A stretch of 32,000 nt of DNA from Nitrosococcus oceani ATCC 19707 (lineage in GTDB: Bacteria; Pseudomonadota; Gammaproteobacteria; Nitrosococcales; Nitrosococcaceae). Below, piece after piece: positions 1 through 15,188 of this stretch. The notes under the pieces were generated by a model. The model did not search any database. It worked only from the letters and a program-made list of their open reading frames with translations, and was not told where the DNA came from. A program made the position numbers and the translations under genes. Position 1 is the first letter of the stretch. Each line of letters begins with the position of its first letter. The stretch lies in the NCBI RefSeq assembly GCF_000012805.1, contig NC_007484.1:90001-122000 (forward strand), written 5' to 3'.

Positions 1-63
1 TGCCTACGGCGGCCTCTGAGCTCAAGCGTTCGCGCCGCTGCGCATCGCGAACAACCGTTCGAC
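1..63 (+). repeat. attC-like site, 3' portion (cut by the window edge)
   Basis: Contains CCGCTGCGC, shared with the site at 2901-2957. Ends GAACAACCGTTCGAC, comparable to the ...AACTCAAGCGTTAGAT end of classical attC. The SIMPL gene starts 85 nt downstream. Confidence 0.3.
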
Positions 64-147
64 TGGCAGAACCTCCTGCATCATCAGATGCCGCACACCT
101 ATTACCTAGGAGAACCCGCCAGTCAATTCCCCGATAAGGAGATATTA

Positions 148-867
148 ATGACGGAATCAAATAAAAGTAATGCGATCGTGCTTGGCGTTTGTCTAATTAT
201 AGCCTTATCCTCTCTCGGCTATCTTCTTGGTAATGCCGCTATTAGATTTAAGGAGTACGAGCGAACAGTTACCGTAAAAGGACTATCGGAAAGGGAATAT
301 AGTGCAGATATCGTAATCTGGCCCATCCAGTTCAGTACCGCAAGTAATGATCTCGAAGAGATGTATAGATCCATAGATGCAAGCACTGAAAAGATAAAAT
401 CGTTTCTTGAAAGCGCTGGCGTTAATGCTGATGAAATCTCATATTCATTGCCTGCGATCACCGATAAGTCAGCGCAACAGTATGGTAATCAAGCTAAATC
501 TGAATTCAGATATACCGCCTCCCAAACAGTAACCGTTTATTCCAAAAACATTAATGTGGTGCGAGACGTTATGGGAAATATGTCTGATTTAGGAAAGCGG
601 GGAATTGTATTTACTGGCGGTGATTATCAATCACAAACTGAATATATTTTTACACGCCTAAATCAGGTGAAGCCTGAAATGATCGAAGAGGCGACAAGGA
701 AGGCCCGTGAAGTTGCAGAGAAATTTGCCGCCGATTCTAAAAGTACTTTAGGAAAGATTAAATCCGCCTCTCAAGGGCAATTTAGTATTAGTGCCAGGGA
801 TAAGAACAATCCTCATATTAAAAAAGTGAGGGTGGTTTCAACAGTTGCTTACTATCTTTCAGACTAA
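148..867 (+). CDS. SIMPL (DUF541) family periplasmic/membrane-anchored protein
   Basis: ATG at 148 is preceded by AAGGAG (136-141). It has an N-terminal TM/signal segment (AIVLGVCLIIALSSLGYLL). TVTVKGLSERE..., IKPEMIEEATRKAREVAEKFA and VRVVSTVAYYLSD match my memory of SIMPL proteins. The ORF-track start at 88 lacks an RBS. Confidence 0.78.
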   Translation: MTESNKSNAIVLGVCLIIALSSLGYLLGNAAIRFKEYERTVTVKGLSEREYSADIVIWPIQFSTASNDLEEMYRSIDASTEKIKSFLESAGVNADEISYSLPAITDKSAQQYGNQAKSEFRYTASQTVTVYSKNINVVRDVMGNMSDLGKRGIVFTGGDYQSQTEYIFTRLNQVKPEMIEEATRKAREVAEKFAADSKSTLGKIKSASQGQFSISARDKNNPHIKKVRVVSTVAYYLSD

Positions 868-877
868 TTAAATTTAA

Positions 878-953
878 GCATAACAAGAGCATGCAGATGG
901 ACACAGTGCCCGCTGAGCGTGCCCTGCGCCGCTGATGCCGGACGCTGAGGGAT
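878..953 (+). repeat. attC-like site after the SIMPL cassette, non-canonical 3' end
   Basis: GCATAACAAGAGCATGCAGATGG...GCGCCGCTGATGCCGGACGCTGAGGGATC. It shares GCAGATG with 2901-2957 and GCCGGACGC with 3947-4012. It ends GAGGGATC rather than GTTRRRY and abuts the transposase remnant. Confidence 0.4.
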
Positions 954-963
954 CCCCACAAAA

Positions 964-1368
964 CTACGCCAAATTCCGTTCACGCACATAATCTGGGAAT
1001 GATTCCCAGGACTGAATCAAGTCAGTACAGTTAATTGGGTAATCAGGTTGCCTGATGAGGGCGGCAGCAAGAAACAAAATGGATAGGACGTTACGATCAC
1101 GTACGGTGTTGGCTTGGAAATGGCGGTGCCATTGGTTGCGCTTGGCATGGCAGCCAATCCACCATAGACATCATGTGGCCAGTGCACCCATCAAAAGGAG
1201 GAGATTGAGTCGTTCGATATTCTTCGAACAACTGATGGTAATACCGAATCCGTATTTATCACTCTTTAAATCATGGAAATACTCCTCGATAAAGGCCAAC
1301 CTTGGATCAACACCATTATCAGTTGCGATAAACAATCCAACCGGGCTTGATGCCAGGGCAAAAAGCGC
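964..1368 (-). pseudogene. DDE transposase C-terminal remnant (IS4/IS5-like) with an in-frame TGA
   Basis: The minus-strand frame reads ...DPRLAFIEEYFHDLKSDKYGFGITISCSKNIERLNLLLLMGALAT*CLWWIGC...HFQANTVRDRNVLS... The R..E......K/LKS-GF and ERL..LL..ALA pattern is typical of DDE_Tnp_1 C-termini. An internal stop lies at 1171-1173 and no N-terminal catalytic part is present. Confidence 0.5.
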
Positions 1369-1383
1369 TTAAGTTCTCGGGCA

Positions 1384-1466
1384 AGTACATGAGCCGTGTT
1401 CATCAGTTCGTGATCCAGGTTCGTTTAGTCTCGGACCTGCTATCATAGCTCTACGGCTCATGTACT
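1384..1466. repeat. Perfect 14-bp inverted repeat (AGTACATGAGCCGT / ACGGCTCATGTACT) with a 55-nt spacer
   Basis: Read directly: arms at 1384-1397 and 1453-1466. The spacer has a nested 5-bp stem (CAGGT/ACCTG). It lies next to the truncation point of the DDE remnant. Confidence 0.8.
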
Positions 1467-1709
1467 ACACAAACCATAACTGACTGACCATACTAATAAT
1501 ATCTCGGTTTTGCACCGTACTAAGGAAAAACCTTATGAAGGTAAGCACAAACGCCGGGTTTCAGGATCCGGCGGCGGTATTTGCAAACCCAAACCACATG
1601 CATATTGCAATCGATAAGCGCTGTGCCCGGTAGTAATGACTTCCATAAGCCCACAACATACCGCCGCTAGGCTCATTATCCACGGCTAAACCCGTGGTGT
1701 TCTGCCAGT

Positions 1710-1727
1710 CAACTCCCCGATTAGGCG
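1710..1727 (+). repeat. attC 3' half-site immediately upstream of nirK
   Basis: CAACTCCCCGATTAGGCG is identical (18/18) to the 3' end of the attC-like site at 5026-5043. The 5' half has been replaced by unrelated sequence. Confidence 0.45.
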
Positions 1728-1777
1728 TTTGAGTATCCCTTTTGTTTAAATTTTTTAATTTACCTAGGAGATAAAGA

Positions 1778-2896
1778 ATGAAAAAGTTAATAAAGTATTT
1801 TGCTTTCTATCTAGCGACATTTTCATCGGTTTTGTATGCTGATGGAGAAGCATCATCTTATATTGCTAATATTGGCACCCATGCAAACTTAAAAGATCTA
1901 GAAAGAGTGAGGCAGGAATTAGTTGCGCCGCCACATTTGCCTGATCATCAACAAGCCTATTCTGGAAAGCCTCGAATTGTAGAAATAGAAATGGTCATTG
2001 AGGAAAAAGAGGTGGAAATAGAACCCAATGTTTTTGTTCAAGCAATGACCTTCAATGGTACCAATCCAGGGCCTATTATTGTTGTTCATGAGGGTGATTA
2101 CGTCGAGTTAACACTTAAAAACCTTGATACAAACATGTTGTTACATAATATCGATTTTCATCCTGCAACAGGTGCATTGGGTGGTGGCGCGCTTACTAAG
2201 GTGGCTCCTGGTCAGCAAGTAACATTACGATTCAAAGCAGATAAAGCTGGAACTTATGTCTATCACTGTGCTCCAGGCGGGCTAATGACTCCTTACCATG
2301 TTGTTTCAGGTATGTACGGCGCGATAATGATTTTTCCAAAAAAAGGTTTAAGAGATCAAAATGGGAAAAAGGTTACCTATGACAAGGCTTATTATGTTGG
2401 TGAGCAAGGTTGGTATATTCCAAAAGATAAAAATGGAAAGTACAAACGATACGCAAATGCAATAGAACCTTATGGTGATACTTTAGAGGTTATGCGGGGA
2501 CTTGTTCCAACACACGTCACATACAATGGGTCGAAAGGCGCTTTAACGGGAGACAATGCAATGAAGGCCAAGGTTGGTGATTCAGTCTTGTTTATTCATT
2601 CGCAAGCCAATGAAGATTCCCGTATTCACTTAATTGGCGGACACGGAGACCTAGTTTGGCCAGGTGGCTCTTTTAAGAATACTCCTATGGTTGACAAGGA
2701 AACATGGCATGTAAATGGTGGAGAATCCGTCGCTGCACTTTACACATTTAAACAGCCAGGGCTTTATGCTTATCTCAATCATAATTTGATTCAAGCGTTT
2801 ATGCTTGGCGGCGCTGCTCATGTGAAGGTAGATGGTGAGTGGAATAATGATCTAATGGAACAAGTTGTTAAGCCTAGTCCTATTAATGCAGATTGA
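1778..2896 (+). CDS. nirK: Copper-containing nitrite reductase (NirK), Sec-type signal peptide
   Basis: GGAG RBS at 1769-1772. The protein aligns by eye along its length with AfNiR-type NirK: HNIDFH (T1 His, catalytic Asp, T2 His), [18 protein letters not shown] (T2 His, T1 Cys, T1 His, T1 Met), [11 protein letters not shown] (catalytic His) and [12 protein letters not shown] (T2 His). GC is about 38%, against about 50-55% in the core part of the window. Confidence 0.93.
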
Positions 2897-2900
2897 TACA

Positions 2901-2957
2901 CCTAACAAGAAGAGGCAGCAGATGCTCTGCACCGCTGCGCGGCGTGAATCGGAGATA
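2901..2957 (+). repeat. attC-like site after nirK, non-canonical 3' end
   Basis: CCTAACAAGAAGAGGCAGCAGATGCTCTGCACCGCTGCGCGGCGTGAATCGGAGATA begins 5 nt after the nirK stop. It ends CGGAGAT, where the classical site has CGTTAGAT. Confidence 0.4.
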
Positions 2958-3251
2958 CTGCCATATGAAATTGGCAATGCACTATCTATCATGATCAAAC
3001 GAAAACGGCTTACCCATAATGAAGCACTGTCAGCGTTTAAAATAACGAGCCTGATTCACGTAAGGCTTGTTGCTATTGACATTCAGCAGGCATTAAAACT
3101 GGCATTTGAATTTAATATCTATGCTTATGGTGCGTACTTTTTGCAGTGCGCTCAGTCCTTATCGTGTCCGCTAATTACACTGAATAAACGCATGAAACAA
3201 GTTTCTGTCCAGGACATTCTGAATGCAATCCGAGACTCTAGAAAGGGCTAA
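2955..3251 (+). pseudogene. vapC: 5'-truncated PIN-domain (VapC-like) toxin fragment
   Basis: ILPYEIGNALS..KRKRLTHNEALSAF......LVAIDIQQALKLAFEFNIYAYGAYFLQCAQSLSCPLITLNKRM follows the C-terminal two thirds of VapC. The N-terminal Asp-containing strand is absent. No antitoxin lies upstream. Confidence 0.6.
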
Positions 3252-3314
3252 CAAAGCGCTCTAGCCGGCCAAAAATCTCTAAATCTCTGCGCGCTTCTTA
3301 GCCGGCTGGAGATC
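3247..3314 (+). repeat. attC-like site after the vapC fragment
   Basis: GCTAACAAAGCG (contains the TAA stop) is followed by CTCTAGCCGGCC (3259-3270). That pairs 10/12 with AGCCGGCTGGAG (3300-3311). The site ends GGAGATC. Confidence 0.45.
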
Positions 3315-3368
3315 AAAAAACAAGCGCTACATAACAAAATACCCAACATGCTTGTGGTTAAAGAATCA

Positions 3369-3422
3369 GCATAACAAAAATAAGGGATACCTATATATTG
3401 TTGCCTATCTTGTTTTTATCCG
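3369..3422 (+). repeat. Short attC-like imperfect palindrome with no ORF
   Basis: GCATAACAAAAATAAGGGATACC...GCCTATCTTGTTTTTATCCG. The outer arms are roughly complementary (CATAACAAAAATAAGG vs CTTGTTTTTAT). Another ACATAACAAAA box lies at 3329. Confidence 0.3.
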
Positions 3423-3438
3423 CTACTAGATTACCACC

Positions 3439-3750
3439 ATGACACAAGCGCGTTCGATTCAAATCAGCCTCGTCGATACGCCGTACTACCACCGCCTCGC
3501 CCGTTGTGTGCGCCGTGCATTCCTGTACGGCGTCGATGACTTCTCCGGTCGCAATTACGAACACCGCCGCCCATGGATTGTTGACAAGCTCAGGAGCTTA
3601 TCGTCCGTATTCACTATGGACATCTGCGCCTACGCCCTGATGAACTATCACTCCCATGCCGTGCGGGTCGATGAAGACACGGCGGGGCGCTGGGAAGAGG
3701 ACGACGTTATGGAACGCTGGAGCACTTTGTTTAGCACACCGGAGAAATAA
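3439..3750 (+). pseudogene. HUH/Y1 (IS200-like, COG1943-type) transposase-like gene, N-terminal third only
   Basis: MTQARSIQISL.DTPYYH...RCVRRAFLYG.D.FSG.NYEHRR.W...L..L..VF...ICAYALMNYHSHAV matches my memory of the roughly 320-aa family, including the HUH box (HSH). Homology stops where AT-rich unrelated sequence starts at about 3750. Confidence 0.62.
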
Positions 3751-3946
3751 AACTAAATTTGTTCGTATTATTGAAGAGACCACAAAGTTAAAATCATGCG
3801 AGATAGGCAATTTTCATGACTTGGATTTTATGTATCCAGATTCTGAAAGCGCGTATAGTATATTGCAGTCAGCAGGTGCAGATTTAATAGCTGATCCAGT
3901 TGGCGTGGCAATGGATGATTAGTATCGTAAGCGAAGCATAAAAAAC

Positions 3947-4012
3947 GCATAACAAACACATTAAATTCGCTCCCTTTGGTCGCCGGACGCCCGCTAGCTA
4001 GCGTCGTTTATG
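3947..4012 (+). repeat. attC-like site upstream of the ZIP gene
   Basis: GCATAACAAACAC...GTCGCCGGACGCCCGCTAGCTAGCGTCGTTTATG. The outer boxes CATAACA and GTTTATG are near-complementary. It follows the stop (3920-3922) of an unassignable ORF fragment. Confidence 0.4.
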
Positions 4013-4033
4013 GGGGCATTATACCTAATAGAT

Positions 4034-4753
4034 ATGCCTGAATACGTCTACATCATATTGTTATCGCTTCTCGCTGGGGCTGCTATGCCGGTTGGGGCTT
4101 TGCTTGCTCGCCTTGATGTTATGCATCCCGCATTTTTGAGGCAAAAGTCTCGGCAGTTTATGGTTGCTTTCGGCGGTGGCGCGCTTATATCTGCTGTGGC
4201 ACTCGTCTTAGTGCCTGATGGGGCCAGTAAACTATCACCTTTAACTGCAGCCTTATGTTTCGGAGCGGGAGGAGTTTTCTTCTACCTCCTCGATATGCTT
4301 TTAAATCAACTAAAAAGCTCAGCCGGTCAGCTAGTTGCCATGCTTTCCGATTTTATTCCGGAAGCTATTGCCCTCGGAGCCGCTTTCGCCGTTGGTGAGA
4401 GCACTGGTTTGATTTTAGCGTTGCTTATGGTTTTACAAAATCTCCCCGAGGGGTTTAATGCATACGAGGAATTAGAAAATTCTGCCAAATTAGCCCCGAA
4501 CAAAATACTAATGGCGTTCGCCAGTTTAGCTCTTGCAGGCCCTGTCTCCGCACTCACTGGGTATTTCGTTCTTGCAGAGTCGCACCAATTTGTAGCGGGA
4601 TTAATGCTATTCGCCAGTGCAGGCATTCTTTATTTGGTTTTTCAAGATATTGCTCCCGAGTCCAAAGCAAAAAACAGTGGTTTTCCAGCACTTGGAGCAG
4701 TCGCAGGGTTTATGCTTGGTCTAGTGGGCAACATGCTAATCGTTCCTGCTTAG
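4034..4753 (+). CDS. ZIP (ZupT/GufA-like) divalent-metal transporter
   Basis: Polytopic membrane protein with the LQNLPEG (HNxPEG-type) and DFIPEAIALG motifs of ZIP TM4/TM5. I prefer the ATG at 4034, because the ATG at 4010 lies inside the attC-like GTTTATG box. The start is uncertain. Confidence 0.82.
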   Translation: MPEYVYIILLSLLAGAAMPVGALLARLDVMHPAFLRQKSRQFMVAFGGGALISAVALVLVPDGASKLSPLTAALCFGAGGVFFYLLDMLLNQLKSSAGQLVAMLSDFIPEAIALGAAFAVGESTGLILALLMVLQNLPEGFNAYEELENSAKLAPNKILMAFASLALAGPVSALTGYFVLAESHQFVAGLMLFASAGILYLVFQDIAPESKAKNSGFPALGAVAGFMLGLVGNMLIVPA

Positions 4754-4780
4754 GTATAACGCCTGCCTTCAGCCGGCCCA
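4754..4780 (+). repeat. attC 5' half-site after the ZIP gene (3' half missing)
   Basis: GTATAACGCCTGCCTTCAGCCGGCCC begins 1 nt after the stop. It shares the (T/C)AGCCGGCC arm with 3259-3270. No complementary arm follows. Confidence 0.35.
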
Positions 4781-4798
4781 CTTTCCGCTACTTCCCTT

Positions 4799-4987
4799 CG
4801 GTCATTCGCTCCAAGCAGTATTGCCTTTGCACTGCCCTATTACCTGCAACTGCTTGATTGGACCGGCCGGGCGGTGCATGAGGACAGGCACGGTGCGCGA
4901 TTCCCGCCGATGTGCAGCCGAACGCTTGCAGGCGATGGGACAGCTATTTTGGTCTATACTCAGAATGTAGGCAAACCGCATAGGTAG
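4799..4987 (+). pseudogene. C-terminal fragment of the same HUH/Y1 transposase-like family
   Basis: ...ALPYYLQLLDWTGRAVHEDRHGA... matches the remembered DYLELVDWTGR..REDKRGAI block. Downstream, the expected IP..LPPILERL continues in another frame (IPADVQP / ERLQAMGQ), so the fragment is frameshifted. Confidence 0.45.
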
Positions 4988-4988
4988 C

Positions 4989-5043
4989 TGTTCTAACTCA
5001 GCGCCTCTCCGTGCGGGGTGCCGCTCAACTCCCCGATTAGGCG
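4989..5043 (+). repeat. attC-like site (best match to the classical aadA-type architecture)
   Basis: GTTCTAACTCAGCGCC...GCCGCTCAACTCCCCGATTAGGCG, compared with classical GTCTAACAATTCG...GCGGCTTAACTCAAGCGTTAGAT. The core CTCCGTGCGGGGTGCCGCTCAAC recurs at 6934-6956. Confidence 0.6.
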
Positions 5044-5114
5044 GCTGCGCGGAGCTTGAACCCAAAATTCCTGAATAGCTTATCGTAGTATTGTGAGAGT
5101 AAAAGGAGATTGAC

Positions 5115-5894
5115 ATGAGCATTAACGGAAAAGTCGCCCTGATCACAGGCGCAGGACAGGGCATCGGACGGGCGATTGCGTTACGTCTGGCCAACGACGG
5201 CGCGGACATCGCCATCGTAGATCTTAACGAAGAGAAAATGGGAGCTGTCGCCGACGAAGTGCGGGCGGCGGGTCGCAAGGCCACCACATTCAAAGCCGAT
5301 GTATCAAAGCGGAATGAGGTTTACGCCGCCGTTGACCACGCTGAAAAGGAACTTGGCGGCTTCGACATCATCGTTAACAATGCGGGTATCGCTACTATCC
5401 AATCCATCGCCGAGGTCACGCCCGAAGAAGTCGAAAAAATCTTCAAGGTCAATATTGAGGGCGTTTTGTGGGGCATTCAGGCCGCAGGCGCGAAGTTCAA
5501 GGAGCGCGAACAGAAAGGTAAAATCATCAACGCAGCATCCATCGCGGGCCATGAAAGCATGCCTCTGCTGGGCGTTTATTCGGCGACTAAGTTCGCCGTT
5601 CGTGCCCTGACGCAGGCGGCGGCCAAAGAGTTTGCGAGCGATGGGATCACAGTCAATGCTTACTGTCCCGGCATAGTCGGCACCGACATGTGGGTCGAAA
5701 TCGATCGGCGCATGGCAGAAATCACGGGAGCCAAAATCGGTGAAAACTATGACAGATACGTCGGCGACATTGCTCTTGGTCGGGCGCAGACGCCCGAAGA
5801 TGTGGCATCTTTCGTTTCCTATCTGGCGGGGCCGGATTCGGATTACATGACTGGACAAGCTCCCTTGATTGACGGTGGCCTTGTTTATCGTTGA
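5115..5894 (+). CDS. budC: Acetoin (diacetyl) reductase / meso-2,3-butanediol dehydrogenase, classical SDR
   Basis: AAGGAG RBS at 5101-5106. [16 protein letters not shown] and YSATKFAVR (YxxxK) are present. Similarity to Klebsiella BudC runs nearly end to end as I recall it ([45 protein letters not shown]). GC is about 57%. Confidence 0.88.
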
Positions 5895-5969
5895 GTTTGA
5901 ATGCCGCGTTCTGCAAAGCAAGAACGTTCGTCGAACCTAAAATAAAAATTTTTTAACGAGAAAATTTAT

Positions 5970-6542
5970 ATGATTAAAATTGCGGTTATTATCGGTAGCA
6001 CCCGTCCGAAGCGTGTGGGCGAATCCGTCGCGCGCTGGGTTTATGACATCGCCGTGCAGCGCAGCGATGCCGAGTTCGAGCTGGTTGATCTCAAGGAGTT
6101 CGACCTGCCGCTGCTCGATGAGCCAGTGCCGCCTTCGATGGGGCAGTACTCCCAGCCGCACACTAAAGCATGGGCGGCCAAAGTCGCGTCCTTCGATGCC
6201 TATGTTTTCGTGACGCCCGAATACAATCACGGTACACCGGGCGCACTCAAAAATGCGCTTGATTTTGTCTATGCCGAGTGGAACAACAAAGCAGCAGGTT
6301 TCGTGAGTTACGGCAGCGCCGGGGGTGCGCGAGCAGTGGAACAACTCAGGTTGGTAGCAAGCGAATTGCAAATGGCTCACGTCCGCAATCAAGTGATGTT
6401 CTCGTTTTTCACCGACTTCCAAAACATGAGCGAGTTCACGCCGCACGAGCGTCATCAAAAATCGGTTGATGATATGCTGGATCAACTCATTGCTTGGGGT
6501 GGCGTGTTGAAAACCCTCCGTGAAAACGCAAAGGCTAAGTGA
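5970..6542 (+). CDS. NAD(P)H-dependent FMN reductase family oxidoreductase
   Basis: MIKIAVIIGSTRP.R.G..VA.WV, FVTPEYNHG.PG.LKNALD and NK.AGFVSYG are typical of the PF03358 flavodoxin-like reductases. Confidence 0.85.
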   Translation: MIKIAVIIGSTRPKRVGESVARWVYDIAVQRSDAEFELVDLKEFDLPLLDEPVPPSMGQYSQPHTKAWAAKVASFDAYVFVTPEYNHGTPGALKNALDFVYAEWNNKAAGFVSYGSAGGARAVEQLRLVASELQMAHVRNQVMFSFFTDFQNMSEFTPHERHQKSVDDMLDQLIAWGGVLKTLRENAKAK

Positions 6543-6593
6543 TGTTTCTTCATAATTCCGACTAACTAAAGTCCCGGCCCGATTGACACTGGG

Positions 6594-6930
6594 ATGAAAA
6601 TTGCTCACGCGCATTTAAAAGTCGCCACTTTGTAACGCGCGCTGGATTTCTACTGCGGAGTACTTAGCTTAGAGTTGACTCAACGCTTCGGATCACAAGC
6701 GGCATTTGTTTTGGCGGGCGGCTATCATCATCATATCGAGCTGAACACATGGGAAAGCGCGGGTGGCTTGCTGCCGTCTGCTGGCACCCCTGGACCTTTT
6801 ATCAGTTGGCGATTTTATATCCGACGCCTGGCGTGCTGCTGGCGAATGTTCGGCGCCGCGTACTGGTAGCTGGATTCAACTGAATGGTGTCGGCGGTCAC
6901 GGCGTTAGCGAAGCCTTATATCTGAACGGC
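6594..6930 (+). pseudogene. Glyoxalase/VOC-family gene, frameshifted and 3'-truncated
   Basis: Homologous blocks lie in different frames: MKIAHAHLKVATL* (6594), then LTQRFGSQAAFVLAGGYHHHIELNTWESAGG (frame of ORF 6675), then GHGVSEALYLNGP (frame of ORF 6763). The expected C-terminal ~40 aa are replaced by the attC-like site. Confidence 0.7.
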
Positions 6931-6972
6931 CCCCTCCGTGCGGGGTGTCGCTCAACGTTGACCCGTTATGCC
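6920..6972 (+). repeat. attC-like site ending in canonical GTTATGC
   Basis: ATCTGAACGGCCCCCTCCGTGCGGGGTGTCGCTCAACGTTGACCCGTTATGCC. 23 nt (6934-6956) match 5007-5029 with one mismatch. Confidence 0.55.
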
Positions 6973-6982
6973 GACAAGGAAC

Positions 6983-7217
6983 ATGGCAGTGAAGGCGATG
7001 AAATACTTCCAGGCAATTCGGGTCATACCGGATCGAGCGATCATCAAGGGCGAATGGATTCAACATGTAGTCCGGTTTCCTGAAAGAGAGCACTGACAGC
7101 CGAATAAAGCGATAGGCTAGAATTGAAGAAACGGAAAACCGATACTTGCGGGTAATCTTATTGCCGGCTGGCGAAACCATACATAACGCATTTTTTGATA
7201 GAGGGTACGAGGCATGA
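6983..7217 (+). pseudogene. DUF4258-family toxin-like gene, inactivated
   Basis: MAVKAMKYFQAIRVIPDRAIIKGEWIQHVVRFPERE. After a frame change it reads TDSRIKR*ARIEETENRYLRVILLPAGETIHNAFFDRGYEA. A TAG sits where I expect a conserved TGG (Trp). Its stop overlaps the next start (ATGA at 7214-7217). Confidence 0.55.
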
Positions 7218-7411
7218 AAGTCATCTATTTCGAAGACACTGACACGCTGTACATTAAGGTTCGCGGCAGTGATATCGCTGAGTCTAAAGACCTAGATGAG
7301 AACACTATTTTCGATATGGAAGCCAACGGTAACGTCCGCACTATCACGTTCGAGCATGCAAGCCAGCGCACCAATGTAAGCCGTTTGATTGTCGAAGGCA
7401 TTGCGGCATAG
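7214..7411 (+). CDS. DUF2283 domain protein (putative antitoxin partner of DUF4258)
   Basis: MKVIYFEDTDTLYIKV.....AESKDLDENTIFDMEANGNVRTITFEHASQR has the typical DUF2283 pattern (Y...D.LYI.......ES.........D.D..G.V.GI.I..AS). It is translationally coupled to the upstream pseudogene. Confidence 0.7.
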   Translation: MKVIYFEDTDTLYIKVRGSDIAESKDLDENTIFDMEANGNVRTITFEHASQRTNVSRLIVEGIAA

Positions 7412-7474
7412 CAATCCCATCAAGCTGATTGGGCTACGCTGTGCTCCGTCCAAAGGCTTAGCGGTTGTTAGGCA
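7406..7474 (+). repeat. attC-like site ending in canonical GTTAGGC
   Basis: GCATAGCAATCC (contains the TAG stop)...GGCTTAGCGGTTGTTAGGCAT. The outer boxes are about 8/12 complementary. The next ORF starts 20 nt downstream. Confidence 0.5.
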
Positions 7475-7493
7475 TATACAGGTAGGTGGCAGT

Positions 7494-8048
7494 ATGAGAT
7501 TTAAAGGCGTTCACCACATTGAGTTTTCAGTGCTTAATTACGAGGAGTCGATCCGATTCTTCGATCAGATGTTCGGCTGGCTTGGATACAGGAGTTTTTG
7601 GACATTAGATATCGGTTATAGGTCGACCTATTACATGGCCCGCTTCCCTTTCTTTCACAGTTACATTGGTATCCAACCGGCTAAAACGGGGAATAAGCTG
7701 GTGCATGTTGATCGTACCACTGGAGTACATCATATCGCGTTGTGGGCCAGGAACAGGAAGGAGGTCGATGACTTCCACATGGAGTTTCTGCTGAAAAATA
7801 ACATCGCTGTCACTAACCCGCCGAGCGAGTATCCAACTTATACTCCTGGTTACTATGCTGTGTTTTTTAATGACCCGATTACCGGAATTCACTTTGAGTT
7901 GAGCCACACGCCGATGCTACCTTCTCTGTCCAGCTATCTCGCGTGGATTCGGGCGCTAAAAAATATTTGGCGCAAGCACCCTGAATGGAAGGCGCCACCT
8001 TGGAAGGAATCGATGCGCAAGTTACCGTCAAGGCATGAGCAAGCCTAA
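7494..8048 (+). CDS. VOC (glyoxalase/bleomycin-resistance/dioxygenase) superfamily protein
   Basis: FKGVHHIEFSV.NYEESI.FFD..FGWLGY and TGVHHIALWA....EVD.F have the paired beta-alpha-beta-beta-beta module pattern. I prefer the ATG at 7494, because the ORF-track start at 7389 reads through the attC-like site. Confidence 0.72.
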   Translation: MRFKGVHHIEFSVLNYEESIRFFDQMFGWLGYRSFWTLDIGYRSTYYMARFPFFHSYIGIQPAKTGNKLVHVDRTTGVHHIALWARNRKEVDDFHMEFLLKNNIAVTNPPSEYPTYTPGYYAVFFNDPITGIHFELSHTPMLPSLSSYLAWIRALKNIWRKHPEWKAPPWKESMRKLPSRHEQA

Positions 8049-8247
8049 CAAAAAGTAGCCTTATCAATTTTGCACGTCCGCTTTTGATGTATTTTGGTCC
8101 GGAAGTTTTCCACCTTAAGCCAGTGGTAGAGGGTTTCGCGTGATACGTTAAATATTCGTGCGGCCTTTGTCTTACTGCCGCTATTATTTAGGTACGAGAT
8201 TGCCGCTCTATGACGGATGGGGTGAAAATCCTACTGTCCCGGTTCAT
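8045..8247 (-). pseudogene. IS630-family transposase N-terminal (HTH) fragment
   Basis: The minus strand reads ...RHRAAISYLNNSGSKTKAARIFNVSRETLYHWLKVENFRTKIHQKRTCKIDKATF. This fits the IS630/Tc1 OrfA HTH pattern (LR.RVI.Y...GGS...AA..F.VS..T.Y.W.K). The ATG at 8247 is in another frame, so the fragment is frameshifted. No DDE domain follows. Confidence 0.5.
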
Positions 8248-8302
8248 TTAGCTTAAAGAGAGGAAGTCGTATTTTATTGTCCTTAGTATTTGAATTCGGC
8301 GT

Positions 8303-8356
8303 GCCTAACAACGCGCCAACCGGACAGGTACTTCCTTTGCGCCGCGCCGGTTAGGT
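8303..8356 (+). repeat. attC site (most canonical copy): last recombination site of the array
   Basis: GCCTAACAACGCGCCAACCGG...GCGCCGCGCCGGTTAGGT. CCTAAC is complementary to GTTAGG, and the inner CCAACCGG/CCGGTT(A)GG arms also pair. Core-like sequence follows. Confidence 0.65.
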
Positions 8357-8554
8357 TGCTCAATACAATTTTTACCTGCTTTTCCTGTTATTATTTCCAT
8401 AGCTATCTTCTTTACTTTAGCAGGGATTATTTTACTGCTTATCTTTTAAATTATTTATAATACTAGCAGCTGAAGGTAAACTATTATTTCTTATGCCAAA
8501 ATTTAATATTCCCATGTCTCTTCCCATTCTGGCTAGCACCTTTAAACGATAGTA

Positions 8555-9265
8555 ATGAAGAAGACCCGCCTCCCGCTCCAGCGGAAAGCCCAGCTGCACC
8601 CATCCAAGGAAGAAAAGACGCCGTTATCTCAGCAAGAGCTGCTCCGGATCAGCCAAGAAACAAGAGATTGCTTTCTTCCACCAGCCTCCCCAGATAAAAC
8701 CCAGTTAGGGTTGATGGTCGTAAACCCCTATCGTGTTTACGCTTATTGGTCAATTCTGAACCAAGATCTTATCCGCGCCCATAAAAAACTCGGGATAAAG
8801 AAATCCGCTCAATGGGCGCTGCGGTTTTATGACTTTACTGCCGGGAAGCTTGCTATTAGCTCCAGTTTTGAAGTGGCTATCCCGAGGAAAGCCCATCATT
8901 GGTATATAGATCTTTGGGCTGACAATAAACATTATATGGCAGAGCTTGGATTAGCGGATTCTGAAGACCAATTTGTTGCCTTGGCACGCTCTAATATGAT
9001 AGAAACTCCCCGTGCTGGTTCTGCCGATCCTACCGCCCCGGTGATTTTCACGGGCCACGACCTTCAACCTTTCCATCCCGCTAAAACTTTTCCCCTAGAA
9101 TTTTCTGTTTCTCCAGAGGAGCGGGCTGTTCGAAGCCAGGAACTTACCGCCAGCTATTTTTCCTTTCTAGCGGAATCGTCACAAATTCAGCCTAAGGAAA
9201 ATATGCTTTCCAAGCCTAAATCGCTCTCCCAATGGTCCGCAAGCTTGCCCAAGAGGCGGTACTAG
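8555..9265 (+). CDS. DUF4912 domain protein
   Basis: LGLMVVNPYRVYAYWSI...WALRFYD......FEV......HWYIDLWADNKHYMAELG fits the DUF4912 pattern as I remember it. It sits 4 nt upstream of the GH57 gene. Confidence 0.65.
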   Translation: MKKTRLPLQRKAQLHPSKEEKTPLSQQELLRISQETRDCFLPPASPDKTQLGLMVVNPYRVYAYWSILNQDLIRAHKKLGIKKSAQWALRFYDFTAGKLAISSSFEVAIPRKAHHWYIDLWADNKHYMAELGLADSEDQFVALARSNMIETPRAGSADPTAPVIFTGHDLQPFHPAKTFPLEFSVSPEERAVRSQELTASYFSFLAESSQIQPKENMLSKPKSLSQWSASLPKRRY

Positions 9266-9269
9266 CTCC

Positions 9270-10871
9270 ATGGCCAGCGGTTATCTAAGCCTTATCCTAC
9301 ATGCCCATTTGCCTTATGTGCGGCATCCTGAACAGGAGGAAGCGTTAGAGGAACGGTGGCTGTTTGAAGCCATGACTGAATGTTACCTTCCCCTCCTGAC
9401 CACTTTTGAACGGCTAACGAATGAGGGAATTCCGTTTTACCTGACACTCTCCTTATCCCCAACCTTGCTCTCCATGCTTCAAGACCCCCTATTGCTGCAG
9501 CGCTATGGACTTCACATGGAGAAGCTTATTTCCCTAGCCGAGAAAGAAATCCGATATACCCGGGGCAATACTGATCTTAACCGGCTGGCGCGCCTTTACC
9601 GGCGCTGGTTTTTGCAGACACTTTCAGACTTTGAGGAGCGTTATCAGCGCCAATTGGTGCCGGCTTTTGCCCGTCTCCAGCAAGAAGGGGTCCTTGAGAT
9701 TATTACTTGTGCCGCTACCCATGGCTTTTTACCCTTGCTACAACCGGAGCCCACGGCTGTCTACGCTCAGCTCCAGGTTGCCGCTGATTACTACCGGCAA
9801 TGTTTTGGCATTGCTCCTAAAGGCATTTGGCTGCCCGAGTGCGCTTATTACCCAGGGCTTGAAAAGGTATTAAAAGCAGTAGGTTTCCGTTATTTTTTCA
9901 TTGAAACTGAAGCCCTTCTCCATGCCAGCACTCGGCCTCGCTATGACCATTTCGCTCCCGTTGCCTGCCCGAATGGGGTGGCTGCCTTTGGGCGGGAGCC
10001 AGCACTTTCGCGGCAAGTTTGGAGCGCCGAGGAAGGCTATCCTGGCGACGGTGATTACCGGGAATTCTATCGGGATGTGGGCTTTGAACGAGAACTGAGT
10101 TACCTTCAACCTTATCTTCCTGATGGCCGAATCCGGGTCGATACCGGCATGAAATATTATCGGGTAACCGATAAAACTGAGTATAAAGCTCCCTATCAAC
10201 CTGCTAAGGCCCAGGCTAGGGTTGCTTGCCATGCCGGTCACTTTTACCACCATTGCCTGCAACAGATAACAGGCGCCAACAGGATGGACCGGCCACCGCT
10301 CCTGGTTGCCCCTTACGATGCCGAATTGTTTGGTCATTGGTGGTTTGAAGGCCCCCAATGGCTCGAGCAGTTACTACGCCGGATCGGGACAGGGGAGGGA
10401 GCAATTCAAACCATCACCCCTTCCCAGTATTTGACTCAACACCCTGTGCTCCAGCAAGCGACACCGAACCTATCCAGCTGGGGCGATAGGGGCTATTATG
10501 ATTTTTGGCTCAATGAAAAAACTGACTGGATATACCCCCTGTTGCACCGGGCCGCGCGGCGCATGAAGGAGCTTACGATAGCTTATGGCCACGAGTCTAA
10601 GGGAACCCTTGCCGGCCGTGCCCTGGGACAGGCCGCTCGCTCACTGCTATTGGCCCAGGCTTCGGATTGGCCTTTTATCCTTCAAAATGGAACGACGGTG
10701 GAGTACGCCACTCGCCAGCTACAGGATCATTTGTCCCGCTTTCATTATTTAGAAATGGTTTTGGAAAGGAAAAGCTTTGATGAGCGCCGGCTACAGGCTT
10801 TGGAGGCCCTTGATAATATCTTCCCGGAACTTGATTACCGCGTTTACAAACACCCCTATAGGGAACGATAA
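9270..10871 (+). CDS. Glycoside hydrolase family 57 protein (GlgB-type alpha-glucan branching enzyme-like, DUF1957 C-terminus)
   Basis: GYLSLILHAHLPYVRH is the GH57 region 1. GIWLPECAYYPG carries the nucleophile Glu, and APYDAELFGHWWFEG carries the acid/base Asp. The ASDWPF block lies near the C-terminus. Confidence 0.88.
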   Translation: MASGYLSLILHAHLPYVRHPEQEEALEERWLFEAMTECYLPLLTTFERLTNEGIPFYLTLSLSPTLLSMLQDPLLLQRYGLHMEKLISLAEKEIRYTRGNTDLNRLARLYRRWFLQTLSDFEERYQRQLVPAFARLQQEGVLEIITCAATHGFLPLLQPEPTAVYAQLQVAADYYRQCFGIAPKGIWLPECAYYPGLEKVLKAVGFRYFFIETEALLHASTRPRYDHFAPVACPNGVAAFGREPALSRQVWSAEEGYPGDGDYREFYRDVGFERELSYLQPYLPDGRIRVDTGMKYYRVTDKTEYKAPYQPAKAQARVACHAGHFYHHCLQQITGANRMDRPPLLVAPYDAELFGHWWFEGPQWLEQLLRRIGTGEGAIQTITPSQYLTQHPVLQQATPNLSSWGDRGYYDFWLNEKTDWIYPLLHRAARRMKELTIAYGHESKGTLAGRALGQAARSLLLAQASDWPFILQNGTTVEYATRQLQDHLSRFHYLEMVLERKSFDERRLQALEALDNIFPELDYRVYKHPYRER

Positions 10872-10933
10872 ATAGGCGGTTCAGTCTATCGCGATATTTA
10901 ACCTAACTACATGAATGAGGGAGAAGCTACACG

Positions 10934-12397
10934 ATGTATATCGTTATGATCACGCCCGAGTGCGCTCCAATAGCAAAGGTGGGTGGTCTAGGAGATGTCG
11001 TTCAAGGGCTTTCTAATGAGCTTTCGATACGGGGCAATACCGTTGAGCTTATTCTCCCTAAATACGATTGTATGCGCTACGAGCGCATCTGGGGTTTGGA
11101 GAAAACCCATAATAATTTATGGGTGCCTTACCATGACCAGTGGATCCCTTGCGATGTGTATTTTGGTTTTGCGGAGGGGCTGAAATGCTTTTTCATTGAG
11201 CCCCATAATGGCTTTTTCCAGCGGGGGACCTATTACGGTCAGCCCGATGATCCCCAGCGCTTCGCCTTTTTCTGCAAGGCGGCGCTAGAATTCATGCTCA
11301 GGAGCAACAAATATCCGGAGATTATCCACTGCCACGACTGGCAAACGGGCCTTGTGCCGGTATTACTCTTCGAGCAGTATAAATATCTGGGGATGACTCA
11401 CCCACGAGTCTGCTACACTTTGCATAATATGCGGCACCAGGGGGTGACCGGTGGTCATATCCTCCAGCAGGTAGGATTAGATCCCGCAGCTTATATGACA
11501 CCAGAACGGTTACTCGACCATACTTACCCCCATGGGGTCAACCTGATGAAAGGAGGAATCGTCTTTTCCAATTTCATTACCACCGTTTCACCTCGCTACC
11601 TGGATGAAATCCGCTACACGGACCAGGGCTATGGTTTGCAACACACTCTTCATGAGCATAGTCAAAAACTAGGTGGGATCCTCAATGGTGTGGATTATAA
11701 GGTGTGGAATCCTGACATCGATCCCTACATTGCAGCTCGCTATAATCTGAAAACCCTGGACAAAAAATACGAGAATAAAACCGCCCTGCGCCATCGCTTA
11801 TGGCTACGGGATGAATATAAACCCATTGTGGGTGTTATTAGCCGTCTCGATCCGCAAAAAGGGGTCGAGCTTATCCGCCATGCCCTCTTCTATTGTCTTG
11901 CTAATGGCTGCCAGTTCGTTTTGCTGGGCGCTAGCGCCAGTAACAGTATCAATGCCGATTTCTGGTACCTCAAGCAATATCTGAATGATGACCCCGATTG
12001 TCACCTGGAAATTGGCTATGATGAAGATTTGGCCCACCAGATCTACGCAGGCGCCGATATGCTCATCGTTCCTAGTATTTATGAACCTTGTGGCCTCACC
12101 CAAATGATTGCCATGAAATACGGTACGGTCCCCATAGTGCGCCATGTGGGAGGGCTGGCGGATACGGTATTCGATGCTAATTACGCTCATAAACCGTACC
12201 ATGAGCGCAACGGTTTTGTCTTCCACGACTTTAACCATGAAGGGATAGAAGCTGCCCTCCATCGAGCTATTGGACTATGGTATGAATATCCCCAATATTT
12301 CCGGGAACTGATGGAAAACGGAATGCGTTATGATTTTTCCTGGAATCATCCAGGACAACATTACCTCAATATTTACCACCATATCCAAGAAATATAA
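10934..12397 (+). CDS. glgA: Glycogen (starch) synthase, GT5
   Basis: ECAPIAKVGGLGDVV is the KxGGL motif. HCHDWQTGLVP and the SRL..QKG, PS.YEPCGL.QM.AM.YGT.P.V...GGL.DTV blocks are present. Confidence 0.94.
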   Translation: MYIVMITPECAPIAKVGGLGDVVQGLSNELSIRGNTVELILPKYDCMRYERIWGLEKTHNNLWVPYHDQWIPCDVYFGFAEGLKCFFIEPHNGFFQRGTYYGQPDDPQRFAFFCKAALEFMLRSNKYPEIIHCHDWQTGLVPVLLFEQYKYLGMTHPRVCYTLHNMRHQGVTGGHILQQVGLDPAAYMTPERLLDHTYPHGVNLMKGGIVFSNFITTVSPRYLDEIRYTDQGYGLQHTLHEHSQKLGGILNGVDYKVWNPDIDPYIAARYNLKTLDKKYENKTALRHRLWLRDEYKPIVGVISRLDPQKGVELIRHALFYCLANGCQFVLLGASASNSINADFWYLKQYLNDDPDCHLEIGYDEDLAHQIYAGADMLIVPSIYEPCGLTQMIAMKYGTVPIVRHVGGLADTVFDANYAHKPYHERNGFVFHDFNHEGIEAALHRAIGLWYEYPQYFRELMENGMRYDFSWNHPGQHYLNIYHHIQEI

Positions 12398-12482
12398 GAG
12401 TTTTACAGTTAAGGTGTCTTCCCTAAAACTCTCTGTTAAGCGCTTTAATTCCGATGTGCTGAAACGAGCCATCGTGCCAATT

Positions 12483-14069
12483 ATGGCTGGGGGACTCTCG
12501 CTAATTTTCCTCTCCCTGGTAACGGTGAGTCCTTGGTGGCTGCTAGGACTTACCGTGACCCTGCCGCTAGTGGCGCTCGGCGTCTATGATTGGGTGCAGC
12601 AATGTTGGACCCTGACACGCAACTATCCAGCTGCTGCCCGCATCCGCTGGCTCTTCTACGACCTTCGGCCCTATCTGCGTGCCTATATCGTTGAGGACGA
12701 TTTAGAAGGCAAGCCATTTAGCTTTGATGCCCGTAACCTGGTTTACGCCCGCGCCCGAGGTAAGACCGATACTCACCCCTTTGGGACAGAGCGCGATCTG
12801 GCCTCTGATGAATATGAATGGCTGTGTCATTCCATGGCACCGGCTGAAAATCCAGAAAAAAACCCACGTGTCTCCATTGGCAGCGCCCAATGCGAGCAGC
12901 CCTATAACGCCTCACTCCTCAATATTTCGGCCATGAGTTTCGGCTCCCTCTCGGCCAGGGCGGTAGAAGCACTGAACAAGGGAGCACGGCTTGGCGGGTT
13001 TTATCATGACACGGGCGAAGGAGGTATTAGCCCCTATCATCTAAAGTGGGGTGGGGATCTGGTTTGGGAAATCGGTTCAGGCTATTTCGGTTGCCGGGAT
13101 GATAAAGGAAATTTTGACCCAGGCTTGTTTCATGAAAGCGCTACGCGCAATGAAGTCAAGATGATTGAAATCAAACTCAGTCAAGGCGCGAAACCTGGCT
13201 ATGGCGGGCTCTTGCCAGCTGCTAAGGTAACCGAGGAAATTGCGTGGGTACGTAAGGTTCCCAAGGGGCAAGACTGTCTCTCGCCTCGGAGCCATTCGGC
13301 CTTTTCTACTCCCTTGGAGATGTTGGAGTTCGCAGCTAGGATGCGGCAGCTTTCTGGCGGCAAACCGGTAGGCATCAAGCTTTGCGTTGGACAAGTTCAT
13401 GAAGTGCTGGCGATTATGAAAGCAATGCTCAAGACCGGTATCCATTTGGACTTTATCGTGGTCGACGGGGGCGAGGGGGGCACAGGGGCGGCACCGGTGG
13501 AGCTATCGGACTACGTGGGAATGCCCCTAACCGAAGGGCTGATGGTAGTTCGCAACGCCCTAGTTGGCACCGGACTGCGGGATAAGGTGCGGCTTGGAGC
13601 CAGCGGCAAAGTCTATTCAGGCGCTGGCATGGCCCGCAATTTCGCCATCGGCGCGGATTGGTGTAACGCAGCACGGGCTTTTATGTTTTCCATTGGCTGC
13701 ATTCAGGCCCAGCGCTGCCATTTGGGCACATGCCCAACCGGCGTTACCACGCAAGATCCTGGCCGCCAGCGGGGCCTGGTAGTGGATGTGCAGGCTAAAA
13801 GGGCAGCGCGGTTTCACCAACAAACCCTTACTGCGCTTGGCCATATCGTCGCCGCGGCGGGTCTGGCTCATCCTCGCGATCTGCAGCCTTATCATCTTAT
13901 TCGCCGAGTTGGCACAGCCGAGGCTAAACTCTTTGACCGAATTTATCCCTTCCTGCCGGAAAACGCCCTACTTGAGGGGGCCGAAGATACTCCCTACAGC
14001 GAATGGTGGCAGGCTGCTAATCCTGCCAGTTTTCGGCCGCGTATTGACTTGGCCGCTGCACGAATCTAA
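12483..14069 (+). CDS. Membrane-anchored FMN-binding glutamate-synthase-domain-2 family protein (GltB-like)
   Basis: Two N-terminal TM helices are followed by LRNYP-type RNYPAAARIRWLF. KLSQGAKPGYGGLLPAAKV and VVDGGEGGTGAAP are FMN-domain motifs, and C..G.C...C.LGTCPTG is present. The ORF-track start at 12330 overlaps glgA by 68 nt. ATG 12483 or GTG 12456/12414 are more likely starts. Confidence 0.83.
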   Translation: MAGGLSLIFLSLVTVSPWWLLGLTVTLPLVALGVYDWVQQCWTLTRNYPAAARIRWLFYDLRPYLRAYIVEDDLEGKPFSFDARNLVYARARGKTDTHPFGTERDLASDEYEWLCHSMAPAENPEKNPRVSIGSAQCEQPYNASLLNISAMSFGSLSARAVEALNKGARLGGFYHDTGEGGISPYHLKWGGDLVWEIGSGYFGCRDDKGNFDPGLFHESATRNEVKMIEIKLSQGAKPGYGGLLPAAKVTEEIAWVRKVPKGQDCLSPRSHSAFSTPLEMLEFAARMRQLSGGKPVGIKLCVGQVHEVLAIMKAMLKTGIHLDFIVVDGGEGGTGAAPVELSDYVGMPLTEGLMVVRNALVGTGLRDKVRLGASGKVYSGAGMARNFAIGADWCNAARAFMFSIGCIQAQRCHLGTCPTGVTTQDPGRQRGLVVDVQAKRAARFHQQTLTALGHIVAAAGLAHPRDLQPYHLIRRVGTAEAKLFDRIYPFLPENALLEGAEDTPYSEWWQAANPASFRPRIDLAAARI

Positions 14070-14224
14070 GTCCCAAAAGAGAGAGCAATTTATGGTGAAA
14101 AATCCATCGTAAGCAATCTGGTTACGGTATTGTGGGTGATACCATCAACCACTTTACCGATGATGGGACAAGTATCCCCTGAAGAGAGAAGAGGTCAATT
14201 AGAAAAGGCTTTTACTTCGAGCAA

Positions 14225-14252
14225 GTGCGGCCGCCTACCGTCATGGCCGCAC
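14225..14252. terminator. GC-rich hairpin between convergent genes
   Basis: GTGCGGCC-N12-GGCCGCAC, an 8-bp perfect stem. It lies between the gltB-like stop (14069) and the CBS gene stop (14323). There is no clear U-tract. Confidence 0.35.
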
Positions 14253-14322
14253 AGGCAGCTTTGTGGTGTGCGGATTAGAGACAGCAGGCGGCCTAGAAGA
14301 TGCGATAGGACAAACTTGTCCC

Positions 14323-14952: not shown

Positions 14953-15188
14953 TAGATGATTACCTCATAGAAAAAATGATACAACGCGAACACACCATAA
15001 CGGCCCCCTTTCCGGGATAATCACGTATTCCCCCTGGATCGAGGAAAACTAAGGAAAGCGGGTAAAAAACTCTACTTTTCATTTGTCCACTGTGCCCTAG
15101 CCCTGTCGCACCGGCTCCAAACGCTAATGCATGACGCTTGAAGTCAAGCCCCTTAGCAATTAGCTACTCCGGTACACTGGCATCGCCC

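Follow-up and report, generated by a model that had tools for sequence, protein, structure and literature searches.

A decayed chromosomal integron of Nitrosococcus oceani, with the nitrite reductase gene nirK as a probable cassette

IntI, the integrase of integrons, acts on attC sites as folded bottom strands and recombines them with attI or with another attC. Promoterless gene cassettes thereby enter next to attI and are excised again, and they are transcribed from a promoter, Pc, near intI. In the sedentary chromosomal integrons of marine Gammaproteobacteria, for example the Vibrio cholerae superintegron and the integrons of Shewanella and Xanthomonas, intI diverges from a series of promoterless cassettes that lie in one orientation and each end in attC. 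A similar arrangement is found in a model marine ammonia oxidiser, Nitrosococcus oceani ATCC 19707. The DNA analysed here, called the window, is a stretch of 32,000 nucleotides (nt) from the forward strand of contig NC_007484.1 (assembly GCF_000012805.1, positions 90,001 to 122,000). Its positions 1-8356 very probably (at a rough probability of 0.93) represent the distal two-thirds of an 11.5-kb chromosomal integron whose intI is broken and in which the nitrite reductase gene nirK is one cassette. It is bordered on one side by a DNA-glycosylase gene and on the other by the DUF4912-GH57-glgA glycogen genes, and other N. oceani assemblies also contain the array. A first-pass annotation, made from the letters of the window, had proposed an attC-delimited array with intI to the left of the window, and both parts of this proposal are borne out.

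The likeness to sedentary chromosomal integrons includes attC sites that resemble each other within the array, a cargo of toxin-antitoxin genes, VOC genes and unknown open reading frames (ORFs), and a fixed locus with varying cassettes. Unlike those integrons, however, the N. oceani array is small (~12-14 cassettes), its integrase is inactivated, many of its attC sites are degraded, and one cassette encodes a respiratory enzyme of the nitrogen cycle that has been shown to function in the host. With its decayed integrase beside clustered attC sites, the locus also recalls the clusters of attC lacking integron integrases (CALINs) that have an intI pseudogene. Such pseudogenes lie no more than 10 kb from 15 of 279 CALINs, and loss of intI has been proposed as one origin of CALINs (PMC4889954). 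What sets the N. oceani locus apart from CALINs is that its decay can be traced stepwise: the integrase gene of a sister species is annotated as full-length, and two conspecific lineages carry independent lesions in the same attC sites. That sister species, Nitrosococcus watsonii C-113 (CP002086; locus L024), has an integron at the same chromosomal position and shares with N. oceani the attC family, the last two cassettes, the IS630-type remnant (IS, insertion sequence) and the terminal repeat, but its other ~15 cassettes are different and there is no nirK in its array. Chromosomal integrons whose integrase is dead have been described before, and the present one has probably already been catalogued by large-scale IntegronFinder surveys; the cassette-borne nirK is the part worth following. 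In the literature search no relevant title or abstract joined Nitrosococcus oceani and integron, and no paper was found that ties nirK or nitrite reductase to integron cassettes or describes an N. oceani integron. A comparison of five N. oceani strains never uses the word integron (PMC7285500).

By an exact protein match, the window also maps to scaffold DS995301.1 of N. oceani assembly GCA_000155655.1. Positions to the left of the window are given on L001, the locus with 10 kb upstream of the window (window position = L001 position - 9913). An intI pseudogene is present at L001 5823-6678 (window -4090 to -3235), or 3.2-4.1 kb before the window begins. It consists of two overlapping frames, which diverge from the cassettes and use the opposite strand. 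Both have TIGR02249, 'integron integrase', as their best match: one scores 138 bits across profile positions 69-179, the other 206 bits across 189-315. XerC and XerD score far lower (92 bits for XerD with the C-terminal fragment). The C-terminal fragment also contains the IntI-specific segment, and among its >7000 homologues, which are 75-88% identical to it, many bear the name integron integrase. A break in the reading frame separates profile positions 179 and 189, and the locus thus represents a CALIN with an intI pseudogene or a decayed integron. In addition, the N-terminal domain appears to have lost about 30 residues, since residue 36 of the fragment aligns to profile position 69. The identical two-ORF state is found in strains NS58 and AFC27. 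Consensus matches offer candidates for the remaining platform elements. A putative attI is marked by a GTTAGTC box ~95 nt from the intI start, which is common with N. watsonii although the surrounding alignment is poor, and a putative Pc by a promoter-like TTGACA-16-TATAGT (11/12) at the intI start that is directed toward the cassettes (L001 6672-6699).

The cassettes are co-oriented, each an ORF followed by attC, and are transcribed away from the divergent intI; the attC sites overlap stop codons or begin 0-10 nt past them. Three cases in which the stop codon lies inside the 5' box had been pointed out before and are correct (GGCTAAC at 3246-3252, GCATAGC at 7406-7412 and GCCTAAC at 8043-8049), as are the jumps in composition, with a G+C content that moves between 0.41 and 0.58 from segment to segment. 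The core of the 5' box with AA after it, TAACAA, occurs 13 times on the plus strand of the 11.5-kb array, where ~1.9 would be expected from the flanking DNA (Poisson P = 1e-7), and four times on the minus strand. A naive scan for folding xxxxAAC...GTTxxxx pairs gave equal counts on either strand, inside and outside the array, and was dropped as non-discriminating. Rfam at gathering thresholds has no match in the window; Rfam is not known to include an attC family, so this null result says nothing either way.

The attC sites were detected with home-made covariance models, R1, R2 and R3. R1 was trained on two upstream sites (L001 7646-7717 and 8671-8746), which show six compensatory pair differences and bulges at matching places. 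Upstream of the window, the attC sites fold into canonical hairpins: a 7-bp R helix is followed, after a short spacer without pairing, by an L stem of 13-15 bp, and each of the three single-base bulges in this stem is on the 3' arm of the bottom strand. The four sites closest to intI are canonical, and most sites inside the window fold no better than shuffled sequence. Window matches of R1 are 878-950 (36.3 bits) and 3947-4024 (15.4 bits). R1 also finds attC adjoining related integrases in Thiomicrorhabdus, in one metagenome contig and in N. watsonii (six sites), but it is too narrow: short sites were missed, and iteration on the N. oceani upstream region drew in noise. R2 was trained only on the six N. 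watsonii sites found by R1 and run against 73,491 bases. It recovers all four upstream N. oceani sites, i.e. the one at the window start (-22 to 34; 27.2 bits, E = 4e-5) and three farther upstream, and within the window 878-950 (37.6 bits, E = 4e-8), 7406-7473 (34.6 bits; one of the training sites is its homologue), 2900-2950 (22.9 bits, E = 7e-4) and 3947-4024 (18.7 bits, E = 0.012). A model trained on N. watsonii detects these sites because both species share one attC family. All R2 matches are on the bottom strand, and the best match outside the arrays has 14.6 bits (E = 0.17). As every model match is on the intI strand, all cassettes lie on the strand opposite to intI.

R3 was built from 16 sites and separates true matches (at least 26 bits) from noise (13 bits or less). 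Its scores are 45.8 bits for -22 to 34, 50.1 for 878-950, 38.5 for 2900-2950, 26.1 for 3947-4024 and 46.6 for 7406-7473, and it yields no additional window site beyond those of R2. Neither R2 nor R3 has a match in the other 24 kb of the window, and neither has one outside the array in 42 kb. The covariance search that the first-pass annotation had asked for thus gives matches that exceed the noise, all of them within the array and on a single strand. Pairing is present in 91.5% of the cells of the 16-site alignment and falls to 30-41% when the partners are slid; compensatory change is seen in 12 of the 14 L-stem pairs. Model-guided alignments were used; MAFFT on whole sites misplaced the 3' ends, and a gapless version with trimmed loops shifted the arms against each other. 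Three contigs with close homologues of the integrase (L019-L021) have short arrays and partial integrases and served for cross-validation only. The array part of the window holds about five real attC sites and about five remnants. Of the earlier claim of at least nine repeats, all in one orientation after co-oriented ORFs, the one-strand attC-like series is real, but about half of its members are truncated or mutated remnants.

Comparison with N. watsonii shows what such an array looks like with an integrase gene that is annotated as full-length. At the orthologous locus this gene encodes 327 residues, and it is accompanied by ~10 kb of other cassettes: ParE, DUF4160/DUF2442, a FAD mono-oxygenase, HigBA, HicAB, NucS_C and CD-NTase/Cap15-like ORFs. 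DNA homology with N. oceani resumes at window 6929, inside the 6925-6971 element, and continues through the DUF2283 and VOC cassettes, the IS630-type remnant (~120 nt longer in N. watsonii) and the terminal repeat into DUF4912-GH57-glgA. In a divergent N. oceani assembly (L022; GCA_000740735.1), it is the end next to the integrase that differs: another cassette stands beside the second upstream attC, and there is one BrnT gene fewer. Variable cassettes beside a syntenic flank had been predicted, and this is the pattern observed. The integron platform predates the split of N. oceani and N. watsonii and was active afterwards, since N. watsonii has an annotated full-length integrase gene together with different cassettes. 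The two cassettes common to both species are 95.3% identical, and the adjacent non-cassette DNA 89.2% (window 6929-8055 versus 8052-9500; L024 8247-10946). Phage-defence-type cargo in N. watsonii, CD_NTase_C and Cap15-type ORFs at L024 6269-7209, lies in a 2.8-kb stretch without an attC match.

Prominent among the N. oceani cassettes is nirK. The ORF at 1778-2896 encodes a copper nitrite reductase: it scores 459 bits with TIGR02376 (cutoff 296), its protein is 100% identical to NirK of N. oceani ATCC 19707, and a published nirK primer (noc_0089; PMC4103548) matches window 1838-1858. The enzyme has been purified, characterised and found active (PMC4103548), and by reverse-transcription quantitative PCR the gene is transcribed, induced and regulated (PMC3772326). 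It has the orientation of all other cassettes, a G+C content of 0.41 versus 0.50 in the flank, and a leader of 57 nt that begins with TTAGGC at 1721. In its attC, the 5' box ACCTAAC (2900-2906) starts 4 nt past the stop codon and the 3' box reads GTGAATC (2944-2950). A promoter scan found no convincing sigma-70 promoter directly upstream of the gene.

Where did this nirK come from? The closest named NirK is that of a betaproteobacterial ammonia oxidiser, Nitrosomonas cryotolerans (82% amino-acid identity), and one metagenome protein is 85% identical; no N. watsonii NirK is among the top 120 homologues. BLASTN homology with N. cryotolerans nirK covers exactly 1721-2905, from TTAGGC into the 5' box. 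In N. cryotolerans (L030 5930-5960 and 7119-7450), the left edge is a canonical GTTAGGC, and at the right edge the 5' box is broken by an IS5-type remnant with inverted repeats. A further cassette there has a canonical attC (34 bits, L030 9666-9724) 2.5 kb downstream of nirK. The ACCTAAC box directly after the nirK stop codon is also present in a metagenome contig (L032). When metagenomes were scanned with NirK, 80 loci were returned, and in four of them R3 finds an attC beside nirK. In L033 (742-3557), a 76%-identical nirK sits between the first two of four attC sites in 4.2 kb, and the flanking sites score 24.8 and 44.7 bits. In L062 (102-163) and L070 (3852-3949), an attC ends ~50 nt ahead of the nirK start codon, and in L071 (1744-1804) an attC terminates nirK together with a small membrane ORF. 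These attC-flanked relatives have 62-76% amino-acid identity and fall into two clades.

From these edges and neighbours, nirK probably reached N. oceani as an integron cassette. It would have come from a pool of nirK cassettes that circulates in marine bacteria, and would now be immobilised and transcribed from a promoter other than Pc. A broader reading, held with a little less assurance but still likely, is that the only nirK of N. oceani is a captured cassette, that nirK cassettes of at least two clades move by way of integrons between marine nitrifiers, sulfur oxidisers and sediment bacteria, and that the N. oceani copy became immobile through loss of its integrase and through mutated crossover triplets in the flanking attC sites. 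If true, integrons would be a vehicle for nitrogen-cycle genes, those that produce nitric oxide (NO) and nitrous oxide (N2O), in addition to genes for resistance, toxin-antitoxin systems and defence. Such transfer would go some way to explain why nirK is distributed patchily, and in discord with phylogeny, among ammonia oxidisers; the gene is entirely absent from some gammaproteobacterial ammonia-oxidising bacteria (PMC8115276). As nirK is a marker gene and is central to NO and N2O production by nitrifiers, its spread by integrons matters for the interpretation of its phylogeny and distribution.

The array appears frozen and eroding. Altered crossover triplets are present at 944-950 (GCT), 2944-2950 (GTG), 4018-4024 (ATT) and 1720-1726 (ATT). 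The base before the TTAGGC of nirK (1720) is A here, C in L022 and G in N. cryotolerans. The box ATTATAC at 4018-4024 represents a G-to-A change of the GTTATAC of L022, so position 4018 is mutated in only one N. oceani lineage, and L022 has itself lost 33 nt of the 5' half. Conversely, the site at 3246-~3311 lost its 3' box via a 51-nt deletion, whereas L022 retains ...GCCGTTATGC (R3, 15.1 bits in L022). The two lineages have therefore damaged the same attC sites differently, by point mutation of the crossover G versus deletions (window 4018-4024, 3300-3311 and 1720; L022 5418-5450 and 4790-4836). IS200- and IS630-type fragments and pseudogenes occupy the gaps between cassettes. The mutated cores may reflect selection for locking in useful cassettes, or they may be neutral erosion that followed the loss of intI. 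Together, N. watsonii and the two N. oceani lineages form a natural decay series of array fossilisation in which useful cassettes become fixed chromosomal genes. In the AFC27 lineage, four of 18 derived changes are inside the 68-nt attC at 7406-7473, a weak enrichment (P = 0.02). Substitutions between N. oceani lineages also cluster at the 3' end of DUF2283 and its attC (window 7353-7462).

Several repeats singled out by the first-pass annotation turn out to be parts of sites. The elements 4990-5042, 6925-6971 and 1709-1727 form one family with a canonical 3' half (GCCGCTCAAC-spacer-TTAGGC/GTTATGC) and no pairing 5' arm. The parallel to the attC of aadA that had been drawn for 4989-5043 holds for the 3' half: 5021-5042, GCCGCTCAAC-N6-(G)TTAGGC, resembles the attC (59-base element) of aadA1 in class 1 integrons, GCGGCTTAAC-TCAAGC-GTTAGAT, with the box order R''-L''-L'-R'. 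It fails for the 5' half: the two arms of 4990-5042, unlike those of aadA1, are unpaired (fold z = 0.01), the element escapes every model, and ATT replaces GTT; the element is identical in L022. Among four proposed 3' boxes, GTTAGGT (8350-8356), GTTATGC (6965-6971) and GTTAGGC (at its true position, 7467-7473) stand. The remaining one, GTTTATG at 4005, does not, for the model sets that box at 4018-4024, the triplet already seen to be GTT in the sister strain. As to 8303-8356, the proposal that it is the last site of the array is plausible from its good boxes and its conservation in N. watsonii (51/54), but R3 gives it 9 bits and its fold is no better than that of shuffles (z = -0.86). The 9-mer GCCTAACAA stands on both sides of the IS630-type remnant (8043-8051 and 8303-8311) and may be a target duplication by that element. 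In this case, 8303-8356 would be the rest of the attC of the VOC cassette and not a separate site, and the uninterrupted attC may have read GCCTAACAA joined to CGCGCC...GGTTAGGT.

Could repeats of this type be something other than attC? Intergenic palindromes of the repetitive extragenic palindrome (REP) or bacterial interspersed mosaic element (BIME) type, possibly spread by a Y1 transposase such as an IS200-like or REP-associated tyrosine transposase (RAYT), would account for the IS200-type fragment (1520-1654) that adjoins one repeat copy and for the three-member family that lacks an attC fold and escapes all models. Yet the model matches are confined to one strand of an array beside intI and absent from 24 kb of flanking window DNA, the same attC family adjoins integron integrases in three other organisms, TAACAA is biased 13 to 4 between strands, and homology between species breaks at repeat elements, as expected for cassette junctions. 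The idea that 3439-3750 and 4811-4990 are halves of a RAYT/Y1 transposase found no Pfam or NCBIfam support. REP-like scatter over the genome, which the first-pass annotation had named as the outcome that would speak against an integron, was not seen: the 21-nt core of the doubtful family has no further copy in a genome collection, where two chance matches were returned (a coding region of a betaproteobacterial metagenome-assembled genome and Streptomyces), although the known Nitrosococcus copies were not returned either and these genomes are apparently masked or partly searched. Palindromes of the REP kind are therefore very improbable. Equally slight is the chance of a generic genomic island made by a tyrosine integrase of the phage or integrative and conjugative element type, with transcription terminators as the inverted repeats. 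Heterogeneous G+C content and IS fragments suit such an island, and integrase-associated mobile-element clusters have been described in N. oceani without mention of integrons (PMC7285500). But the integrase fragments fit the integron-integrase model best (206 versus 92 bits for XerD) and have the IntI-specific segment, a simple scan finds no terminator-like site at the attC coordinates, the attC structure covaries, the units are single genes bounded by RYYYAAC/GTTRRRY boxes, and, at one fixed locus, the sister species differ from each other cassette by cassette.

A more serious objection concerns nirK alone: the integron may be real, and nirK a resident or separately transferred gene that was placed in the array by rearrangement or IS activity. 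IS debris (951-1708) lies directly upstream of nirK, the gene exceeds typical cassette size and is regulated (PMC3772326), its 5' end is marked only by a 19-nt attC remnant, and the attC at its 3' end is mutated in the core and scores moderately (22.9 bits under R2). The homology to N. cryotolerans has sharp edges, however, which run from the TTAGGC of a canonical GTTAGGC box to the 5' box; ACCTAAC follows the stop codon in L032 as well; relatives of two clades sit between high-scoring attC sites in metagenome contigs; and the gene is co-oriented with the other cassettes and has a short leader. Placement by rearrangement is therefore unlikely, though it has clearly more to recommend it than the two alternatives above. 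The bare remnant and the mutated core at the ends of nirK nevertheless weigh against a decayed integron with a nirK cassette, and so do several further points. The 327-residue integrase of N. watsonii is known from annotation and Pfam matches only, a second and intact intI may be present elsewhere in the N. oceani genome, and no integrase gene is called in the N. cryotolerans locus (13,119 bases, ~6 kb on each side of nirK), which would make the latter a CALIN-like cluster. The models all come from one attC subfamily, the 16-site covariation alignment was fitted to the structure, and the models miss 8303-8356, 3246-3311, 4990-5042 and 6925-6971, where the basis is boxes, homology breakpoints and the sequence of the sister strain.

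Table 1. Features of the array part of the window (window positions 1-8356)
Feature	Position	Strand	Details
attC 3' part closing BrnT/BrnA toxin-antitoxin cassette	1..34	+	starts 22 nt before the window (L001 9891-9947); 3' box GTTCGCG 28-34
SIMPL/DUF541 cassette	29..950	+	ORF 88-867, Pfam SIMPL 1.3e-18; attC 878-950, R1/R2/R3
Boxes of attC 878-950	878..884, 944..950	+	5' GCATAAC 878-884; 3' position 944-950 reads GCTGAGG; GTT core mutated to GCT
Insertion-sequence debris	951..1708	-	IS200-type transposase fragment 1520-1654 (-): Y1_Tnp E = 2e-4, transpos_IS200 E = 8e-6
attC 3'-end remnant TCAACTCCCCGATTAGGCG	1709..1727	+	19/19 nt identical to 5024-5042; crossover G mutated
nirK cassette	1721..2950	+	TTAGGC at 1721, ribosome-binding site, ORF 1778-2896 (noc_0089), attC 2900-2950
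Remnant cassette, C-terminal part of PIN-domain toxin	2951..3311	+	frame ends 3251; weak PIN match, E = 0.0099; attC from 3246 (GGCTAAC)
DNA with orphan 5'-box-like motifs ACATAACAA (3329) and GCATAACAA (3369)	3312..3946	+	ORF 3439-3750, no family match
attC	3947..4024	+	5' box GCATAAC 3947-3953; 3' box ATTATAC 4018-4024; R1, R2, R3
Membrane-protein cassette	4019..4800	+	ORF most likely 4034-4753; 5'-box-like GTATAAC 4755-4761 without recognisable partner
attC remnant	4990..5042	+	5' box TTCTAAC 4991-4997; 3' half GCCGCTCAAC-TCCCCG-ATTAGGC; arms unpaired
Two-gene segment	5043..6566	+	short-chain dehydrogenase 5115-5894 (adh_short 1.6e-59); NADPH-dependent FMN reductase 5970-6542 (FMN_red 1.3e-43)
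Pseudogene, 3'-truncated	6594..6924	+	in-frame stop and frameshifts in translation
attC 3' half ...CTCCGTGCGGGGTGTCGCTCAAC GTTGACCC GTTATGC	6925..6971	+	left edge of block common with N. watsonii
DUF2283 cassette	6966..7473	+	ORF fragment 6968-7096; DUF2283 ORF 7214-7411 (Pfam 1.4e-14); attC 7406-7473
Boxes of attC 7406-7473	7406..7412, 7467..7473	+	5' GCATAGC holding stop codon; 3' GTTAGGC 7467-7473; R2, R3; counterpart N. watsonii L024 8724-8791
VOC/glyoxalase-like cassette	7468..8051	+	ORF 7494-8048; 5' box GCCTAAC 8043-8049 holds stop codon; common with N. watsonii
IS630-type transposase remnant	8052..8302	-	helix-turn-helix part only, 8045-8218, PF01710; directly after 5' box
Terminal attC-like inverted repeat GCCTAAC ... 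GTTAGGT	8303..8356	+	boxes; 51/54 conserved in N. watsonii

Some smaller features of the array (Table 1) deserve mention. The start of the SIMPL cassette (window 32-135) is 90% identical to a cassette start in N. watsonii (L024 3839-3942) that has a different position in the array. Between the attC of this cassette and the IS200 fragment (951-1500) there are short minus-strand ORFs that resemble transposase debris, the sister strain has 28 additional nt at 1300/1301, and a perfect 14-nt inverted repeat is present at 1384-1397 and 1453-1466. The start at 4034 chosen for the membrane-protein ORF agrees with the 239-residue gene call of other assemblies; the ORF has no family match, and its identification as a ZIP transporter was dropped. 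The dehydrogenase and FMN reductase segment ends in a weak 5'-box-like GACTAAC (6560-6566). The pseudogene that follows is presumably of the glyoxalase/VOC type, to judge from its translation.

To the right of the array, the flank at 8555-15500 carries DUF4912, the GH57 branching enzyme, glycogen synthase and a glutamate-synthase-domain protein. One more distant DUF4912 contig stops short of the informative region. Synteny of this flank is kept in N. watsonii and in a more distant relative (L113), whose DUF4912 protein is 61% identical.

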